Assembly (NCBI GenBank): GCA_001796515.1
Contig: MGMS01000009.1
Coordinates: 28,054 to 92,053 of the forward strand
Direction of reading: 5' to 3'
DNA: 64,000 bases
From: Chloroflexi bacterium RBG_13_51_36
GTDB lineage: Bacteria; Chloroflexota; Dehalococcoidia; GIF9; AB-539-J10
Shown here: piece by piece, positions 11,887 through 18,470 of the stretch
Layout: every line of letters begins with the position of its first letter
How positions within the stretch are numbered: the first letter of the stretch is position 1
Notes under the pieces: model-generated
The model's input: the letters and a program-made list of their open reading frames with translations, nothing else
What the model was told of the DNA's origin: nothing
The model's database searches: none
Position numbers and translations under genes: made by a program

Positions 11887-12228
11887 TCAGTGCTGAGACC
11901 TGAACAGCCTATGCCACCATCTTTGCTTATGGGTATGCTTATGGGCTTCCAGGAGCAATAATCGTTCTTGGAGGAATTCTGCTTTAGCTTTCCAGTACCC
12001 GACTTCCTGGGATAGTTGCTCTATTCTGTTGATGAGGGGTTGGGCTGGCTGGCTGTCGTCTGATAAGGGCTTGCTGGGCAGGGGCAGGTCTTCGATAACA
12101 TAGGACTCCCCGAACTTGGTAGGGACCAACCTGGCCTTGAGCTTGCCGGACTTGATATAGCGGCGGATGGTGACTATGGAGACCCCTAATGCCTGAGCAG
12201 CCTCTCTCAGTGTATAACCACTCATCAA
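11887..12228 (-). CDS. excisionase/MerR-type HTH DNA-binding protein
   Basis: 'YTLREAAQALGVSIVTIRRYIKSGKLKA' is an excisionase-family HTH. It lies just outside the tRNA-Lys att repeat, so it may be a remnant of an older element. Confidence 0.55.
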   Translation of the reverse strand: MMSGYTLREAAQALGVSIVTIRRYIKSGKLKARLVPTKFGESYVIEDLPLPSKPLSDDSQPAQPLINRIEQLSQEVGYWKAKAEFLQERLLLLEAHKHTHKQRWWHRLFRSQH

Positions 12229-12320: not shown

Positions 12321-12362
12321 TGAGCCGTGCGAGACTCGAACTCGCGACACCCTGATTAAAAG
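12321..12362. repeat. attL: 42-bp direct repeat identical to tRNA-Lys 3' portion (17215..17256)
   Basis: 12321..12362 is identical to 17215..17256 across 42 bp. It covers the tRNA-Lys anticodon loop through the 3' end. The flanks diverge immediately on both sides. Confidence 0.85.
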
Positions 12363-12457
12363 ATACAAGAGATTTGTCCGTGAGCGTGAAAAGGGGTAAT
12401 CCCTGATACCTTTCTGTTGACAATTTAGCTGCGATTTGTACCGTTAGATACCTTCTG

Positions 12458-12504
12458 GTTTTTCGTGGTGGTGAAAAGTTCGTTAGCAAAAATGTTAGCA
12501 TCTC
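12458..12504. repeat. arm-like repeat copy A (TTTCGTGGTGGTGAAAAGTTCGTTAGCAAAAATGTTAGCA)
   Basis: Shares ~80% identity over ~38 bp with copy B (14817..14858). It shares a near-identical 20-bp 'CGTTAGCAAAA(A)TGTTAGCA' with copy C (17171..17193). It has an internal GTTAGCA direct repeat. Confidence 0.6.
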
Positions 12505-12506
12505 TA

Positions 12507-14714
12507 CTAGGATGTCAGAGGTAGCGGACCAATATTGGCATCGGTGTTGGTTGGAAGGTAGAGTTTGTTGAATCTAAGATTGTTTTCAACAACATCAATT
12601 TCGTCGTCTGAAAGACCGAGTAGTCTGTATATAGCCTGGTCGATAGCGTAGAAATGGCCAGCTATTCGAGCATTGTAATTATTGACGAACTCGACTTGGA
12701 CATGGGTGTTCTTTCTGACGTAGGATTTGTTGAACTCAGCAATGAACTTGTGTTCTTCTCTAATGATGTGGTCGAAGGTATCGTTAATTAAGGTGATTTG
12801 CTCTTGTGAATCGGGTCTATTCAGTGTGATTATAGGAAGGCGCAGGGTGCTGAAGACTCTAGGGTCCGTGAAGTCTGTAGTGCCATGTCTATTGAGCAGA
12901 TACCATAAGCAAAACGACGACTTGAGGAAGGCTACGAGGAATCTCATACCATAGAATGAAGTCAATGGTTCGGGATGTAGCTTCATAAGCGGGTGTCTAG
13001 CTATCTTACAATAGAAGGGGTAGTCGTACTTTGAGTAATAAATGGCACCTTGCGGGACAATGTAAATGGTTTCTTTCAATTTGGCCTTGGGGACAGGATG
13101 TTGGACGAGCCATAGAGGCAAGGTATGTCTCGAATATGCACGGTCTAGACGAGCTGGGGTAGTGTCTTGGATATAAAAGAGGTTGCCGCGAGCACAACCA
13201 ATTATATGTGGGAATTTTAGCAATCGTTGGAGCTGACTATCGTTTAAAGTGACAGGTTCAGGAATAACTGGTGTCGCCCTTATTTTGAAGCTATTCATTT
13301 CGAATTTCCGCAATACGGGTAGTGATACGGTGAGATTCTTTATTTGAAGACAGTCAGCTTCAACAGCTTGAAGTCGATTGACTATATTGGCCTGAACGTC
13401 TTTGAGGACGTTCTCTTGTACCAGTGATTCTATCTCAGAGGCAGAAAGAGTAACGATTTTGCTTTTGCGGATTGAATATATTGAAGGGTCGCCCTCTATA
13501 TTTACCAAGCTAGTTCCCTTGGTGAAATAGAGAGAGAGTATGAATCTTCTGTTTTGGAGTTCATAGTGTTTCACTTGTGGTATGTCCACAGAAAAGAATG
13601 GTTCAAGTTTACGGAGGTGAGGGAAAGCCGTATCGATAATATGTGAAATCTCGGTGACGATTGTGTTGTTTGCAGATGGGGATATGCCGACCTTGCTCTT
13701 ATTCTCTGTTAGTCCCAGGAGAATATAACCACCCGCAGAATTGTTTAGGGCACAGGTGAGTTTGAGAAAATATCGGATGTCATCTTCAGATTCGAGTTTT
13801 GTTATACCGAAGGAATTATTCAGTTCTGTAAGGTTATTCAATATTTTAGTAGTTGATGGTTGCTCTGTAAAGAATGACTCCAATGGATTTAGGAACGCTT
13901 TTCTGAGTGATTGAAAGGACGGGTCTTCAAGTTTTGCCCAGGTGAAGACGTTGCCAACATCTGAAGGAACATGCGCATCCGAGCATTTTAGAAATGCTAG
14001 TGGTCTTGTACGCTTATATTGAGGGGTCGATAATAACCTGACGATGTTGTCGCGCTGAGTCTCGCTTTTGTAGCAAACGCCAGATAATTGTTCGGACCGG
14101 AAGCAGTGAATTCTTTCTGCTCCCTTCAATTCCTGCCAAATACCTTTGTCGGAATCGGTATGAGCATCAATAAGGATGCAGTCGTGAGTTGTTGTTTTTT
14201 CGAGGAGAGTAACGATATCCCAGCTAGGCAGAATCGGTGATTCCGTCTTAGCCAAGTTCTCAGGTTTGTGGCCAGCGTCTGAAAGGAATTGCTCAATTGA
14301 CTGGGGATTAACCGAGGTGTTGAATATTAGAAGAATATGAATACCAGGCCTGACCGTGAGTTCTACGCCCGGAAGGACCAAAACACCTTCGAAGAGTGAT
14401 AATCTGGTTTTAATCTCTGCTAATCTCTTGTTTGCTTGTTGAGAGTCTGTGATTGTTGACAGGGATTGTTGTTCAAGCAACAACTTATCCTTGAGGGAGT
14501 TTATTTTCTTGTATCCCTCAATTGTATTGTGGTCCGTAACTGCAATAATTCTGATTTCCTTGGATTTCGCATTTTGAAGAATATCGTAATATTCCTGGTC
14601 ATTTGTGTCGCCGGTGTCGCGATTATAGCCTGAAGAGGCAGGCGTATGAACATGGAGGTCGACTCTTACAAAATCTTCTTTGGTATCGGTTTTGCTGGCC
14701 ATTTTGTTGCTCAC
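12507..14714 (-). CDS. PHP-domain phosphoesterase fused to Schlafen/AlbA_2-like domain; large uncharacterised cargo protein
   Basis: 735 aa. The N-terminal ~260 aa carry the PHP motifs 'VDLHVHTPASS', 'AVTDHNT', 'GVELT', 'IDAHTD' and 'CSDAHVP'. The middle 'KLTCALNNSAGGYILLGLTENKSKVGI' resembles the AlbA_2/Schlafen nucleic-acid-binding core. The C-terminal ~300 aa have no recognisable family. Confidence 0.8.
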   Translation of the reverse strand: MSNKMASKTDTKEDFVRVDLHVHTPASSGYNRDTGDTNDQEYYDILQNAKSKEIRIIAVTDHNTIEGYKKINSLKDKLLLEQQSLSTITDSQQANKRLAEIKTRLSLFEGVLVLPGVELTVRPGIHILLIFNTSVNPQSIEQFLSDAGHKPENLAKTESPILPSWDIVTLLEKTTTHDCILIDAHTDSDKGIWQELKGAERIHCFRSEQLSGVCYKSETQRDNIVRLLSTPQYKRTRPLAFLKCSDAHVPSDVGNVFTWAKLEDPSFQSLRKAFLNPLESFFTEQPSTTKILNNLTELNNSFGITKLESEDDIRYFLKLTCALNNSAGGYILLGLTENKSKVGISPSANNTIVTEISHIIDTAFPHLRKLEPFFSVDIPQVKHYELQNRRFILSLYFTKGTSLVNIEGDPSIYSIRKSKIVTLSASEIESLVQENVLKDVQANIVNRLQAVEADCLQIKNLTVSLPVLRKFEMNSFKIRATPVIPEPVTLNDSQLQRLLKFPHIIGCARGNLFYIQDTTPARLDRAYSRHTLPLWLVQHPVPKAKLKETIYIVPQGAIYYSKYDYPFYCKIARHPLMKLHPEPLTSFYGMRFLVAFLKSSFCLWYLLNRHGTTDFTDPRVFSTLRLPIITLNRPDSQEQITLINDTFDHIIREEHKFIAEFNKSYVRKNTHVQVEFVNNYNARIAGHFYAIDQAIYRLLGLSDDEIDVVENNLRFNKLYLPTNTDANIGPLPLTS

Positions 14715-14816
14715 CTCTCGTCAATAATTCTAATCGGTGATTATATCGCAAATTGGTGTTTTTGACTATTGATTTGTAAGTGGTATAGCTTGGGCTGGTA
14801 CCGATAGGTCAGTCTT

Positions 14817-14858
14817 CGTCTTTCGTGGTGAAAAGTGCGTTGGCAGAGATCTTGGCGG
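14817..14858. repeat. arm-like repeat copy B in divergent promoter region
   Basis: 'TTTCGTGGTGAAAAGTGCGTTGGCAGAGATCTTGGCG' lies between the PHP gene start (14714) and the LuxR gene start (14925). Confidence 0.55.
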
Positions 14859-14924
14859 AATGAGAGACTTGACAAATCATTAAGAATATGGTACTGTGGT
14901 ACTATATTTGCTAGGGTGTCAAAT

Positions 14925-15335
14925 ATGAATGAATATGGAATGAGTATAAATCCTCGGAGTAAATGGAGCAAAGACTCAAGGGAAGCAAAAGTATCTGTGA
15001 GAGAGCTGGAGATACTGATTTTGCACAGCGAAGGAAGGTCGAACGAGGAAATAGCTGAGACCCTTGATATTAAGTATCAGACTGTAAAGAACATGTTGTA
15101 CAGTCTGAACAAGAAGCTAGATGCAACAACCAATGCGCAGGCTATTATGAAAGCGATTTCAGAGGGTCTAGTGAGGGTGAATATACATAACAAGGATGAA
15201 AGGGACCTTGCCGAGAAGATAATGTGGGCTATACAAACCGATGTATTGGTGTCGAAGGAGGACGCGGGTCTAATAAACATAATAAAGAAGTGGAGAAGAG
15301 AGCGAAAGTCGAAGAGTGAACAAGGGGGTAAGTGA
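14925..15335 (+). CDS. LuxR/GerE-type HTH transcriptional regulator
   Basis: 'VSVRELEILILHSEGRSNEEIAETLDIKYQTVKNMLYSLNKKL' is the LuxR C-terminal HTH. Start placed at an in-frame internal ATG. Confidence 0.65.
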   Translation: MNEYGMSINPRSKWSKDSREAKVSVRELEILILHSEGRSNEEIAETLDIKYQTVKNMLYSLNKKLDATTNAQAIMKAISEGLVRVNIHNKDERDLAEKIMWAIQTDVLVSKEDAGLINIIKKWRRERKSKSEQGGK

Positions 15336-16204
15336 AAGGTGAGGGAATCATTGAGTCGGTGGAGCGAACAAGTAACGCGAGGCGATGCTGGCGAGGGCGG
15401 TGGCGGCAGCCACTCGCCCGCCCATCCTTCTTTCCTTGTCTTAATATGAATAATGTCAACGCTGAGCTTTGGAGAGCACAGAGTTTATTGGCATTGTGGG
15501 ACTTCCTGGAGTATAAAGGACGTATTGGTAGGACGCATGTGATTCTGCATAAGGTGAATGAGCCTTCACTTTTGAAGATTATGCCTACAAAGTGTAGAAG
15601 TAGATACTTTGATGATGGGCGGCTGTATATGTCAGGGAGAATCCGAATACGGCTTGGTAGATACCATAAGGTGCCAGGATTGATGGAAACGCTAACCTAT
15701 GATACGAAGAGAATTGGGAAGAGAGAGGCATGGGCTAGCTTTGGGCAAGATACCAGGCGGTTTCTAAATGGGGTAAACCAGTATAGAAAGAGAAGAGGCT
15801 GGCGAAGGTTACACTATTTGTGGGTTGTAGAAGTGCAGCGTGGGACCGGTTATCCGCATGTGCATATCTTCTTTCCGAACCTAAGGTGGCTGGCACCGCT
15901 TAAGGTTATCAACGGTAATTGGGGAGAAGGTAGGGCTAACGTTGAGAGTCCTAAGAAGATCAAGGTTAGTTGTGCGGCTTATGTTTCAAAGTACCTGCGC
16001 AAGATGGAGGGGTGGCTAGACCTTCACCTAGCCATGCTTTGGTGTGGCAAGTGCCGGATGTACGGCTTTTCCAGAGGCTTCTCGTGCAAGATTGGAAAGA
16101 GAGAATCGGAATGGCGGAGATGGCAAATTGTGGAAACTGGGGATCGTGAACGGTTGGAAAAGGTCCTTGAGGAGGGGGCATATGCAATTGAACAGGGGTG
16201 TTGA
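15332..16204 (+). CDS. HUH rolling-circle replication initiator (Rep)
   Basis: HUH motif 'YPHVHIFF' and catalytic Tyr motif 'AAYVSKYLRK'. The GTG at 15332 has RBS AAGGGGG 5 nt upstream. An alternative start is the ATG at 15446. Confidence 0.65.
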   Translation: MKGEGIIESVERTSNARRCWRGRWRQPLARPSFFPCLNMNNVNAELWRAQSLLALWDFLEYKGRIGRTHVILHKVNEPSLLKIMPTKCRSRYFDDGRLYMSGRIRIRLGRYHKVPGLMETLTYDTKRIGKREAWASFGQDTRRFLNGVNQYRKRRGWRRLHYLWVVEVQRGTGYPHVHIFFPNLRWLAPLKVINGNWGEGRANVESPKKIKVSCAAYVSKYLRKMEGWLDLHLAMLWCGKCRMYGFSRGFSCKIGKRESEWRRWQIVETGDRERLEKVLEEGAYAIEQGC

Positions 16205-16376
16205 TAACAGGCTGTGCATAACAGTGCCGGAAGCAGCGGAAATGCTCGGCATATCAAGGAATTCTGCCTATGAATTGGTGAAGCAAGGGAGATTTCCTGT
16301 GATAAGGTTTGGGAAAAGGCTTCTAATACCAAGATTGGCATTGGAGAAAATGCTGGAGAAAGGCGTCACGAAGTAG
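16182..16376 (+). CDS. excisionase-family HTH DNA-binding protein (Xis-like)
   Basis: 'ITVPEAAEMLGISRNSAYELVKQGRFPVIRFGKRLLIPRLALEKML' matches the excisionase HTH_17 pattern. The internal ATG at 16182 has a GGAGGGGG RBS. It overlaps the rep 3' end. Confidence 0.65.
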   Translation: MQLNRGVDNRLCITVPEAAEMLGISRNSAYELVKQGRFPVIRFGKRLLIPRLALEKMLEKGVTK

Positions 16377-16393
16377 GTCAAAGGAGGGCCGAA

Positions 16394-16885
16394 ATGGATG
16401 AAATGCTGGTTATTTGGACTGCGGTGAATGCGTCGGCAACAATAGCTATGGTGGTGGTGTTGTTTCGGACACTGAGAGGTACATTTGCACAAGTTAGGGC
16501 GATGCGACAGGCGCAGGAGTTGCAGGGACGTGCACATGAATTGCAGGGATTTGTGAAGGTTGCAGATTGGCTGCAAAGAGAAGAGGTTAGGAGAGCTAGA
16601 GGAAGAGTTTATGAGTTAGAGGATATAAAGTACAAGAGATGGGCTCGGGCAGACAGGGAAGAAGCTAGAGTCGTGTGCTACAACTTTGATGTTGTGGGGG
16701 ACATGTTAGACAGGAAACTGATAGATGAAGGTGTGTTGGATAAGTGGGGATGGACAATAAGTAGGTGTTGGGTAACAGTGGAACCGATGGTGAAAGAGGA
16801 GAGGGAGAAGAATCCGCGATTATTTGATCAGTTCGAGCGGCTGGCGGAGGTGGTGTATAAAGAATACACGAACAAGTTGAGGTAA
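16394..16885 (+). CDS. hypothetical protein with N-terminal TM helix (element-borne)
   Basis: 163 aa. Strong RBS AAAGGAGGG. No recognisable motifs. Confidence 0.45.
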   Translation: MDEMLVIWTAVNASATIAMVVVLFRTLRGTFAQVRAMRQAQELQGRAHELQGFVKVADWLQREEVRRARGRVYELEDIKYKRWARADREEARVVCYNFDVVGDMLDRKLIDEGVLDKWGWTISRCWVTVEPMVKEEREKNPRLFDQFERLAEVVYKEYTNKLR

Positions 16886-16899
16886 GAGGTGAGAAAGGC

Positions 16900-17190
16900 A
16901 TGAAAGGTCATATCTGTCAAAGAGCGAAAGGTAGCTGGACAATTGTTTATGATCTACCGATGGATGCTGTAACAGGTAAGCGGCGGCAGAAGTCGCAAAC
17001 GGTAAAGGGTACGAAAAGGGATGCTGAACGCGCCTTGCGTGAGGTACTGCTGTCACTTGAGCAGGGGTCATACGTTAAGCCCAACAAGATGACGTTAGGT
17101 GAATTGCTGAGGCAGCGGCGGAGAAGTTTGACAGGATTTTTGATGTGGATGAGGATGAAAAGTCATATGCGAACGTTAGCAAAATGTTAG
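16900..17190 (+). pseudogene. tyrosine integrase, N-terminal arm-binding/SAM-like fragment only (catalytic domain deleted)
   Basis: 'GSWTIVYDLPMDAVTGKRRQKSQTVKGTKRDAERALREVLLSLEQGSYVKPNKMTLGELL' is the typical phage-integrase N-terminus. The ORF stops after 96 aa, 24 bp before the tRNA-Lys 3' end. The stop codon lies inside repeat copy C. Confidence 0.6.
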
Positions 17191-17193
17191 CAG
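17171..17193. repeat. arm-like repeat copy C (CGTTAGCAAAATGTTAGCAGAT)
   Basis: Near-identical to 12481..12503. Located 22 bp from the attR/tRNA 3' end. Confidence 0.55.
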
Positions 17194-17214
17194 ATTCTGG
17201 TGATTTAGCTAGTG

Positions 17215-17287
17215 AGCCGTGCGAGACTCGAACTCGCGACACCCTGATTAAAAGTCAGGTGCTCTACCAACTGAGCTAACGGCCCAT
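17215..17287 (-). tRNA. tRNA-Lys (anticodon TTT)
   Basis: Reverse complement 'GGGCCGTTAGCTCAGTTGGTAGAGCACCTGACTTTTAATCAGGGTGTCGCGAGTTCGAGTCTCGCACGGCTCA'. Canonical D-loop, anticodon loop CTTTTAA and T-loop TTCGAGT. Acceptor stem has one G-U pair. No encoded CCA. Confidence 0.9.
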
Positions 17288-17625: not shown

Positions 17626-17668
17626 AGCGGGTGATGGGATTCGAACCCACGACGTCTTACTTGGGAAG
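17626..17668 (-). other. tRNA-Gly-like 3' fragment (anticodon loop to 3' end); att-type remnant
   Basis: Reverse complement 'CTTCCCAAGTAAGACGTCGTGGGTTCGAATCCCATCACCCGCT' has the CCC anticodon-loop half, a T-arm and an acceptor 3' strand. It has no 5' half or D-arm. It differs in T-arm and acceptor from the intact tRNA-Gly 730 bp away. Confidence 0.5.
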
Positions 17669-17920
17669 CGCATATTTGCAGGGAATGACTATTGACCTCC
17701 TAAGCCCCATAATTCATAGTATGTCAAAAATGGCGAAAATGTCAAGGCAAATGAGTGAGGGAGTGAAAACGTTAGAAGTCTCGGCTCATATCCCGTTTCG
17801 GAGACTTTATAGTGAGATGGTTTTAGTAGTATCGGAGGTTCTGAGCCCTGTATCGGAAGATTGTTGGTGAGTTTGACTCTGGGGCTGGTAGAGGTTACGA
17901 TAAGAGCAGGAAGAAAGAAC

Positions 17921-18319
17921 ATGGAATCTAGTGCTAATCGTAGGAGTGGGCTGCTTACCGCTGGTGGAGTACTGAGCATAATAGCAGGGGCATCTCAGAT
18001 AATCTTCGGACTGATAGTGCTGGGTTTAATGATAGGCTTTGCCATCTGGGGTGGATATAATCCTTTTCCACATATACCTTGGATGCCAGACAATCGGTTA
18101 GAGATTACGGTATATCCTTTGTTCCCAACGTGGCTCACTATTGTGGGAGTGCCTGCTCTAGCTTTAGGCATAGTGGCCATAATAGGCGGTATCTACGCCC
18201 TAAGAAGGAAGAGTTTTGGCTTGTCCTTAGCTGGGGCTATGTGCGCCCTGCCATCAGTCATTTTGGGAATACTGGCAGTTATCTTTGTATCACTGTCAAA
18301 GAAGGAATTTGAGGCATAG
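17921..18319 (+). CDS. hypothetical 4-TM membrane protein
   Basis: Start taken at 'MESSANRRSG'. Gly-rich TM helices. Sits between the tRNA-Gly fragment and the intact tRNA-Gly. Confidence 0.45.
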   Translation: MESSANRRSGLLTAGGVLSIIAGASQIIFGLIVLGLMIGFAIWGGYNPFPHIPWMPDNRLEITVYPLFPTWLTIVGVPALALGIVAIIGGIYALRRKSFGLSLAGAMCALPSVILGILAVIFVSLSKKEFEA

Positions 18320-18398
18320 AAATAGATGCGGAAGTGGCGGAATGGCAGGTGAAGCACTGGCGGTTGGCTGAGTGATTAGGATAGTTAGAAGGGAAGTG

Positions 18399-18470
18399 AG
18401 CGGGAGACGAGACTCGAACTCGCGACTCTCTGCTTGGGAAGCAGATGTTCTACCACTGAACTACTCCCGC
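18399..18470 (-). tRNA. tRNA-Gly (anticodon CCC)
   Basis: Reverse complement 'GCGGGAGTAGTTCAGTGGTAGAACATCTGCTTCCCAAGCAGAGAGTCGCGAGTTCGAGTCTCGTCTCCCGCT'. Anticodon stem TCTGC/GCAGA and loop TTCCCAA. Confidence 0.85.

Follow-up and report, generated by a model that had tools for sequence, protein, structure and literature searches.

Two probable arm-type integrase site pairs and a likely vestigial arm account for a three-copy repeat in a tRNA-borne element of a Chloroflexi bacterium

A 64,000-nt stretch of the genome of Chloroflexi bacterium RBG_13_51_36 (contig MGMS01000009.1; hereafter, the window) contains a short repeat in three copies, A, B and C, all of which were present where the original prediction, made from the letters of the DNA, had placed them. 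The copies belong to a 4.9 kb integrative element that sits in a tRNA-Lys(UUU) gene: A and C lie near its two ends and B lies between its genes. This arrangement raises the question of what the repeat is and whether its copies share one origin. Our analysis indicates that A and C are most likely the pairs of arm-type sites of a tRNA-targeting tyrosine integrase (Int), A distal and C proximal to the integrase gene (int), and that B is probably a vestigial extra arm at the junction between a variable cargo slot and the backbone of the element. The coordinates of all features are those of the window and are collected in Table 1.

The element is delimited by a direct repeat (attL and attR) of the 3' half of the tRNA gene, and the gene itself is whole, which is the arrangement expected of a tRNA-targeting integrative element. 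The identity of the two att copies breaks off within the anticodon loop TTAAAAG. The anticodon loop is the usual crossover place for tRNA-targeting integrases.

Copy A carries the pair GTTAGCA-AAAAT-GTTAGCA (12482-12500) and copy C the pair GTTAGCA-AAAT-GTTAGCA (17175-17192), the half-sites being direct repeats 11-12 bp apart in both. The five-nucleotide spacing once attributed to all three copies was thus correct for A, but C has a spacer of four nucleotides and the half-sites of B are degenerate (GTTGGCA-GAGAT-CTTGGCG). No further GTTAGCA pair was found in the 64 kb window besides A and C. The heptamer itself was not enriched (7 occurrences versus 6.5 expected), and four of the seven lie in A and C. 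As the pair was also confined essentially to the element arms in related loci, it does not behave as a generic repeat. C lies within the 3' coding region of int, past the catalytic tyrosine, and its likeness to A and B is restricted to the 18-nt pair: it lacks TTTCGTGGTG, and the GAAAAGT upstream of it falls in coding sequence that varies among relatives. The longer common motif therefore stands for A and B, which share the 21-nt pattern GTGGTGAAAAGTNCGTTRGCA (2 matches versus 0.02 expected) and are 81% identical over 32 nt, an identity that did not fall to background on checking. A literature search for the motif string together with integrase or attP terms found nothing relevant.

A scan with the Rep protein of the element, using one genome per species, retrieved ten related loci (related loci are given L numbers) that were chosen independently of the motif; seven of them are labelled Dehalococcoidales or Dehalococcoidia and the remainder Chloroflexia or Brocadiaceae. 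Statements on conservation rest on these loci and on those ascertained by integrase, since the metagenome loci and the first viral matches were selected by the motif and would make the argument circular. The int-distal (P') arm aligned from crossover to pair (138 nt) in 10 of 10 Rep-ascertained relatives, and the 24-nt block AGTTCGTTAGCAAAAATGTTAGCA was 100% identical in all ten, while the other arm positions were approximately 70% conserved. Homology at the left end ceases directly after the pair, where the variable cargo starts. The right-arm pair GTTAGCAAAATGTTAGCA was exact in six of the eight relatives having a right end. In L001 it carries a single A-to-G change, and in L004 (12808-12825) it reads GTTATCA-AAAT-GTTATCA, with an identical G-to-T change in both half-sites, while the left arm of L004 keeps GTTAGCA. 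Third-codon positions inside the C pair were identical in the six exact copies, whereas neighbouring tail codons vary even in amino acid.

The geometry of the arms was equally constant. Measured from the end of the overlap, the start of C lies at 80 nt and the start of A at 119 nt, with zero indels in the window and seven relatives. The rejoined attP would measure approximately 218 bp, with its pairs 199 nt apart, start to start; in contiguous P-core-P' arrangements the pairs are 198 nt (L117), 203 nt (L021) and 205 nt (Paenibacillus larvae phage HB10c2) apart. The target cores of the relatives belong to Lys-UUU, Lys-CUU and Gln-CUG tRNAs, and the same motif accompanies all three. Between integrases with different cores (Lys-UUU versus Lys-CUU or Gln-CUG), the identity of the arm-binding domain was 0.76-0.94 with the motif unchanged, whereas that of the core-binding and catalytic domains went down to 0.58-0.67. 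Such modularity would be expected of an integrase that recognises the arms with its N-terminal domain and the core with its remaining parts.

The pair is also linked to more distant members of this integrase clade. A pair scan of viral contigs identified several phage-like contigs whose integrase has this N-terminal type and is 28-35% identical. The pair is located at the int 3' end in L018 and L020. In L021 it lies just past the int stop, with the second pair downstream; the int/attP region of L021 gave no megablast match to phage records. Known phages retrieved with the arm-binding domain follow this plan with slightly altered half-sites: in the Bacillus cereus prophage phBC6A52, GTTTGCAAAATGTTTGCA lies five bases beyond the int stop, and HB10c2 has GTTACCC-AATT-GTTACCC past the int stop and GTTACCT-TTTT-GTTACTC farther on. 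No homologue of the Rep of the window was found in the examined sequence of L018, L020, L021, phBC6A52 or HB10c2, which comprised a few kb of each viral contig, so this absence concerns the neighbourhood of int only.

A motif-agnostic test gave the same picture. Eighty viral loci were collected by integrase similarity, 48 of which extended at least 25 nt beyond the int stop, and an exact 7-mer pair with an 11- or 12-bp period was sought from -70 to +60 of the int stop, with control windows taken from the same loci. Such a pair was present at 28 of 48 int loci and in 27 of 854 control windows (3%). At least 14 different half-site sequences occurred among the viral loci, with AAAT as a frequent spacer. 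The 7-mer pair is clearly enriched at the int 3' end despite the redundancy of the sample.

The invariant block, the fixed crossover distance, the Arm-DNA-bind_4 domain of the integrase and the same plan in phage integrase loci with no Rep detected beside int all support the arm-type assignment of A and C, on which the original prediction has held up well. The features of a heterobivalent attP were likewise found, namely a separate N-terminal arm-binding domain, a core-unrelated repeat on both arms and DNA conservation at fixed spacing. From these observations, we infer that Int binds the pairs and that the pairs take part in recombination. Specifically, the attP of the excised circle would hold the A and C pairs on either side of the 42-nt core, and integration would split them, sending A onto attL and C onto attR. 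The N-terminal domain of Int would bind each GTTAGCA half-site pair, as direct repeats one helical turn apart, while its core-binding and catalytic domains would work at the crossover in the anticodon loop, thereby bridging arms to core. This bridging, with the Xis-like protein, would confer directionality.

Several points weigh against this assignment. Direct binding by Int is a prediction for this element family, and the constant difference between the five-nucleotide spacer on the left and the four-nucleotide spacer on the right lacks an explanation. The 28 positive viral loci include many near-identical prophages of the B. cereus group, so the effective sample is smaller than 48. The right arm of L004 may mean that recognition is looser than the invariance elsewhere implies, or that this copy is defective. 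Finally, no core remnant was found upstream of B at the canonical 117-120 nt, which bears on the origin proposed for that copy. As a separate observation, the core on the right side of L004 is not followed by a tRNA 5' half.

It is unlikely that the pairs bind an accessory or regulatory protein instead of Int, such as the HTH_17 excisionase-like directionality factor or LuxR. Both proteins are encoded by the element, B lies immediately upstream of the conserved LuxR promoter, and an inverted TGCTAAC beside the pair in some subfamilies creates a palindrome that a dimeric helix-turn-helix (HTH) protein could bind. However, LuxR diverges among relatives, down to 37-48% identity, while the motif is invariant, no LuxR homologue was detected beside the motif in L018, L020 and L021, and the best-conserved protein segment is the arm-binding domain of the integrase. 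Known excisionase sites, as in lambda, occupy a single arm and fall between its arm sites and the core, whereas identical direct pairs occur here at the outer ends of both arms. Binding of Xis or LuxR at the pairs is thus less likely than binding of the integrase.

A role in replication has a smaller chance still. The left-arm repeat and the adjoining palindrome could form the double-strand origin or the iterons of the rolling-circle Rep, and duplicated arms such as B could then stem from errors of Rep in initiation and termination. In favour of this explanation, the element does encode an HUH-type Rep, L089, L060, L124 and L139 contain several arm copies in direct order, and the repeats recall the bind and nic loci of pMV158-type plasmids, with iterons at an 11-12-bp period close to a hairpin. 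Against it, the pair stands at the int 3' end or around attP without a detected Rep homologue nearby in L021, L018, L020, phBC6A52 and HB10c2, and a second pair lies at a fixed distance across the core. Moreover, the crossover sequence ATTAAAAG, which lies 119 nt from the pair, is precisely where internal arms start, and this points to the integrase rather than to Rep.

Least credible is that C was kept only as the peptide VSKMLA of the integrase tail, with A and B as leftover int 3' ends of tandem insertions: C is in frame in intact integrases (N-V-S-K-M-L-A), A reads KMLA in another frame and B, too, yields a similar peptide in some frames, but third-codon positions are identical in C of the six exact-pair relatives beside a variable flanking tail, the pair lies beyond the stop codon in L021 and phBC6A52, and A is part of a conserved arm that is non-coding, with its distance fixed and its flanks unlike the int tail, in elements whose integrases are intact. 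A purely coding explanation of C is therefore largely refuted by these comparisons, and the derivation of all three copies from leftover integrase 3' ends was rejected on account of the non-coding A arm and the post-stop pairs.

The arm-type assignment of C also has to be separated from the fate of the integrase. The integrases of relatives have 422-424 amino acids and an R..HxxR..Y catalytic region, whereas the window contains a 96-aa integrase open reading frame (ORF) with an Arm-DNA-bind_4 domain at its N-terminus (Pfam E=3.7e-7, window 16900-17190). Blastn against L001 revealed that int is retained over its first ~224 nt and its last ~190 nt and that ~895 bp are missing. The deletion junction (17109-17123) lies between imperfect repeats GAGGCAnnGGC, 52-66 nt upstream of C, and the integrase is a pseudogene through this internal deletion. 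The reading frame, shifted by the deletion, is ended by TAG at 17188-17190 in the second half-site of C. Because GTTAGCA contains TAG, the stop inside C is a by-product of the frameshift. It had been correctly noted that the integrase frame stops within C, but the truncation itself lies upstream, and the proposed connection between C and the truncation comes down to a frameshift accident.

The tail frame of int (window 17106-17279; 5271-6545 in L001) runs antisense through almost the whole tRNA gene in the window, in L001 and in other relatives, ending in LIKSQVLYQLS before the stop. In the excised circle, the int frame would cross attP into the left arm and end approximately 10-17 codons on (with LIKRYKRFVREREKG before the stop in the window), so the C-terminal residues of Int would not be the same in the integrated and excised forms. 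This state-dependent end is mildly similar to SSV-type integrases, whose gene spans attP. A split SSV-type integrase that is re-formed on excision was rejected, because only the last ~10-17 codons change and no integrase C-terminal body is present at the left end.

Copy B turned out to be an arm copy of approximately 85 bp and not a 40-bp motif: the family profile of the left arm matched 14774-14851 (profile positions 52-132 of 138, nhmmer E=1.4e-5). B is identical at 62 of 85 positions to the best family arm (L041) and at 59 of 85 to A. Since A is no nearer to B than other family arms are, B is no recent duplicate of A. It was confirmed that B lies in a divergent promoter region, between the LuxR promoter and a promoter-like site (14768-14740, minus strand) that belongs to the PHP gene, and an alignment of the LuxR upstream regions of the window, L001, L005, L010 and L065 revealed that conservation begins approximately 7 nt past B. 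A second arm copy in better condition was found in L004 (E=3e-15), with ATTAAAAG 117 nt before its pair. We infer that B would be a mutated relic of a second int-distal arm, stranded between the variable cargo slot and the backbone, and that it was probably left behind when an earlier integration, either in tandem or at a secondary site, was followed by a deletion.

The stretch that separates the left pair from LuxR is 0.75-2.8 kb long and different in each relative. When the homologous islands were compared, other genes, with matches to models of established or candidate defence proteins or to nuclease domains, were found in place of PHP, encoding an AAA_15 ATPase of the NsnB/AriA/GajA type (L001), a GmrSD_N/NsnA-like protein (L002), a HEPN protein (L005), a PLD nuclease (L008) and an Hsp70-like protein with a pPIWI-associated nuclease domain (L010). 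In the window, the N-terminal third of the cargo protein resembles Ppl (PADLOC E=1.2e-18, residues 16-282, first ~250 of 894 profile positions), and it is followed by a Schlafen/AlbA_2-like domain in the middle of the protein and by a C-terminal half that is uncharacterised. The PHP-Schlafen protein may constitute a single-gene defence system in a variant form that has not been described.

Because PHP occupies a variable slot and B appears to be a relic of a second arm, its arrival as a module is plausible. The two-arm arrangement of L004 offers a parallel for the cassette-like acquisition suggested earlier, but B is old and decayed and lacks a core remnant; the companion suggestion that PHP is regulated through the repeats found nothing in the analysis to show it. 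The module boundary is an attP arm, unlike an integron cassette site. An integron gene cassette was rejected as an explanation, given that the repeat is a direct copy of the attP arm with no attC-like palindrome and that the integrase is heterobivalent. In addition, the 5' end of PHP and the sequence upstream of it (14700-14790) are similar to the corresponding part of L010 (9190-9290), where the cargo gene is an unrelated one of 104 aa; different cargo genes may share a conserved divergent promoter and leader beside the LuxR promoter.

A metagenome pair scan yielded at least 120 loci that, being selected by the motif, serve as context only. Over all loci examined there were at least 164 pair occurrences, of which at least 83 lie in a conserved left-arm context. 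At least eight of these occurrences are hybrid 'solo' sites, with left-arm sequence upstream and the int tail and tRNA 3' end downstream (L041 at ~9782 in minus orientation, L059, L078, L098 at ~11905, L127, L103, L134 and L110). These sites look as if they were scars of interior deletions by recombination between A-type and C-type pairs. Stacked left arms, two or three in the same direction with different genes after each, were found in L089 (4865/6948/8076), L060 (126/821), L124, L139, L098 (10475/11905) and L004 (6523/8540). The internal arms of L089, L060, L098 and L004 start with ATTAAAAG at the canonical distance, and the sequence upstream of them is not tRNA. The repeated unit of L089 takes in the 3' end of paralogous quinone-reductase-like genes.

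Among the matches listed, 65 left arms had sufficient upstream sequence: 27 follow a full tRNA 3' half, 14 have just 7-17 nt of core before them, terminating precisely 119 nt from the pair, and no tRNA half, and the other 24 are decayed arms or members of other subfamilies. The sequence of the 14 short-core arms suggests secondary-site integration or accretion. Building on these arms, on the arm and cargo arrays of L089, L060, L098 and L004 and on the eight hybrid scars, we speculated that modules consisting of the crossover remnant ATTAAAAG, a full arm and cargo could stack through the integrase at secondary sites, making the element an integron-like collector of defence genes. We regard this extension as doubtful. 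If it were true, B would be the worn boundary of one capture, and the hybrid 'solo' scars would represent the matching pathway of loss.

The other genes of the element are given in Table 1. Six genes lie between the att copies, in the order cargo, LuxR, rolling-circle Rep, Xis-like HTH protein, DUF4760 protein and int, and the element is now immobile by itself. All ORFs between the att sites were assigned, and none of them contains an FtsK/Tra-like transfer domain such as a pSAM2-like integrative and conjugative element (ICE) would have. A blastn search of plasmids with the element as query matched the tRNA alone, and an Rfam search of the sequence likewise found tRNA only, the arms matching no Rfam family.

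Table 1. Features of the integrative element and its target in the window
Feature	Position	Strand	Details
attL core	12321..12362	.	42-nt exact copy of the tRNA-Lys 3' half, from anticodon loop to 3' end
Int-distal (P') arm of the former attP, 138 bp	12363..12500	+	Family-wide conservation; nhmmer E=2e-38
Copy A core, block AGTTCGTTAGCAAAAATGTTAGCA	12477..12500	+	Half-sites 12482-12488 and 12494-12500; 12-bp period; proposed P' arm-type sites
Cargo gene, 735-aa PHP + Schlafen/AlbA_2 protein	12507..14714	-	Pfam PHP, PHP_C and SLFN_AlbA_2, all just under curated cut-offs
Copy B, decayed P' arm duplicate	14774..14858	+	Degenerate half-sites GTTGGCA (14839-14845) and CTTGGCG (14851-14857); probably vestigial
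LuxR promoter/operator region	14866..14924	+	TTGACA 14869-14874; GGTACTGTGGTACT over the -10 region; left edge of backbone homology
LuxR/GerE-family regulator	14925..15335	+	Pfam GerE E=2.9e-11
Rolling-circle-type replication initiator (Rep)	15446..16204	+	Pfam REP_ORF2-G2P E=1e-12; motifs HVH and YVSKY in translation
HTH_17 excisionase-like protein	16182..16376	+	Pfam HTH_17 E=3.8e-15
DUF4760 protein	16394..16885	+	Pfam DUF4760 E=7.8e-9
Integrase pseudogene	16900..17279	+	Arm-binding part 16900-17123 joined out of frame to C-terminal tail 17109-17279
Copy C core, GTTAGCAAAATGTTAGCA	17175..17192	+	Half-sites 17175-17181 and 17186-17192; 11-bp period; proposed int-proximal (P) arm-type sites
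tRNA-Lys(UUU), integration target	17212..17285	-	ARAGORN; Rfam tRNA 72.8 bits
attR core	17213..17254	.	Exact direct repeat of 12321-12362; supplies the 3' half of the intact tRNA

An RNA or terminator structure in the left arm was not recovered by an alifold consensus over 60 arms. The recurring structure is only a GTAC-N6-GTAC-like palindrome, and a full hairpin followed by a T-run is confined to one subfamily. Specifically, a GGTAC-N6-GTACC palindrome occurs in many left arms (for example, L005 at ~2150-2180), and a perfect 22-bp palindrome followed by a T-run occurs in that subfamily. A GGTAC element is common to the left arms and the LuxR promoter (GGTACTGTGGTACT, window 14869-14910), and such sharing hints at one binding protein, perhaps LuxR.

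Two observations concern the surroundings of the element. Just beyond attL, a 113-aa ORF (11887-12228, minus strand) encodes an HTH_17/MerR-type excisionase-like protein and could be a remnant of an older element at the same tRNA; no additional att or arm copy was found to the left of it. On the other side, a 51-nt sequence (17626-17676) is 73% identical to the 3' part (18399-18449) of the tRNA-Gly(CCC) gene (18398-18470), approximately 770 bp upstream of that gene, and ARAGORN makes no tRNA call there. One possibility is that this sequence is a degenerate att-like duplicate and that, with the tRNA gene, it brackets a small insertion that includes a 152-aa membrane-protein ORF (17861-18319).

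For the window, the analysis accounts for the repeat, sets the borders of the island and the former attP to the base and explains the dead integrase by an internal deletion. It also outlines a family of tRNA-integrating elements of approximately 4-7 kb in Dehalococcoidales and related metagenome-assembled genomes, with a rolling-circle Rep, a variable defence-like slot and an arm motif under very strong conservation; a description of this Dehalococcoidia family was not found in the literature. For a large integrase clade, a predicted arm-site rule emerges, in which two copies of one 7-mer, separated by a short A-rich spacer, occur at the int 3' end and again approximately 200 nt away. Such a rule could aid the delimitation of prophages and islands and the design of minimal attP sites, as genetic tools for organisms that are hard to manipulate.

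Among known systems, the attP of Lactobacillus phage mv4 was defined experimentally as 215 bp with two pairs of adjacent 11-bp direct-repeat arm sites, one at each arm end (bioRxiv 10.1101/2023.11.06.565760). With mv4 the element would share an attP of similar length (~218 bp predicted here), one site pair per arm end, a tRNA 3' end as target and an arm-binding N-terminal domain; an AACTAG core was proposed for the mv4 sites, whereas the half-site here is GTTAGCA. Phage lambda likewise has a separate arm-binding N-terminal domain and core-unrelated direct repeats on both arms, as predicted here, but its attP contains five arm sites plus IHF, Xis and Fis sites, whereas the element has one pair per arm. 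Unlike in mv4 and lambda, the int-proximal pair of the element lies inside the int coding region, and its arm-site role is predicted from sequence. Further parallels are found in the Firmicute phages phBC6A52 and HB10c2, whose integrases (MKGHI..., Arm-DNA-bind_4) have N-terminal domains 44-53% identical to that of L021, a relative of the window integrase, and which carry a 7-mer, an AAAT-type spacer and a 7-mer directly past the int stop. Their half-sites (GTTTGCA and GTTACCC) differ by one to three bases, and they are complete phages, not 5 kb Rep elements; no annotation or characterisation of their arm sites was found in the literature.

In the pSAM2-type ICEs of actinomycetes, tRNA integration, a tyrosine integrase, a rolling-circle Rep and an excisionase are combined, and tandem integration leaves an att copy between the elements (PMC2440964). 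Those elements have 10-25 kb and conjugative transfer genes, whereas the 4.9 kb element lacks such genes, its Rep is of the REP_ORF2-G2P type and its host belongs to Chloroflexota. P4-like satellites have a conserved backbone with one variable defence-gene slot. The present element has a single variable defence slot as well, but its backbone (Rep, LuxR, Xis and Int) is unrelated and, unlike in P4-like elements, the slot adjoins the int-distal arm, with extra arm copies at some slot boundaries. Viewed against these systems, the repeats would be the ordinary biology of a well-known type of system, and the family, motif, cargo slot and arrays would not surprise a specialist.

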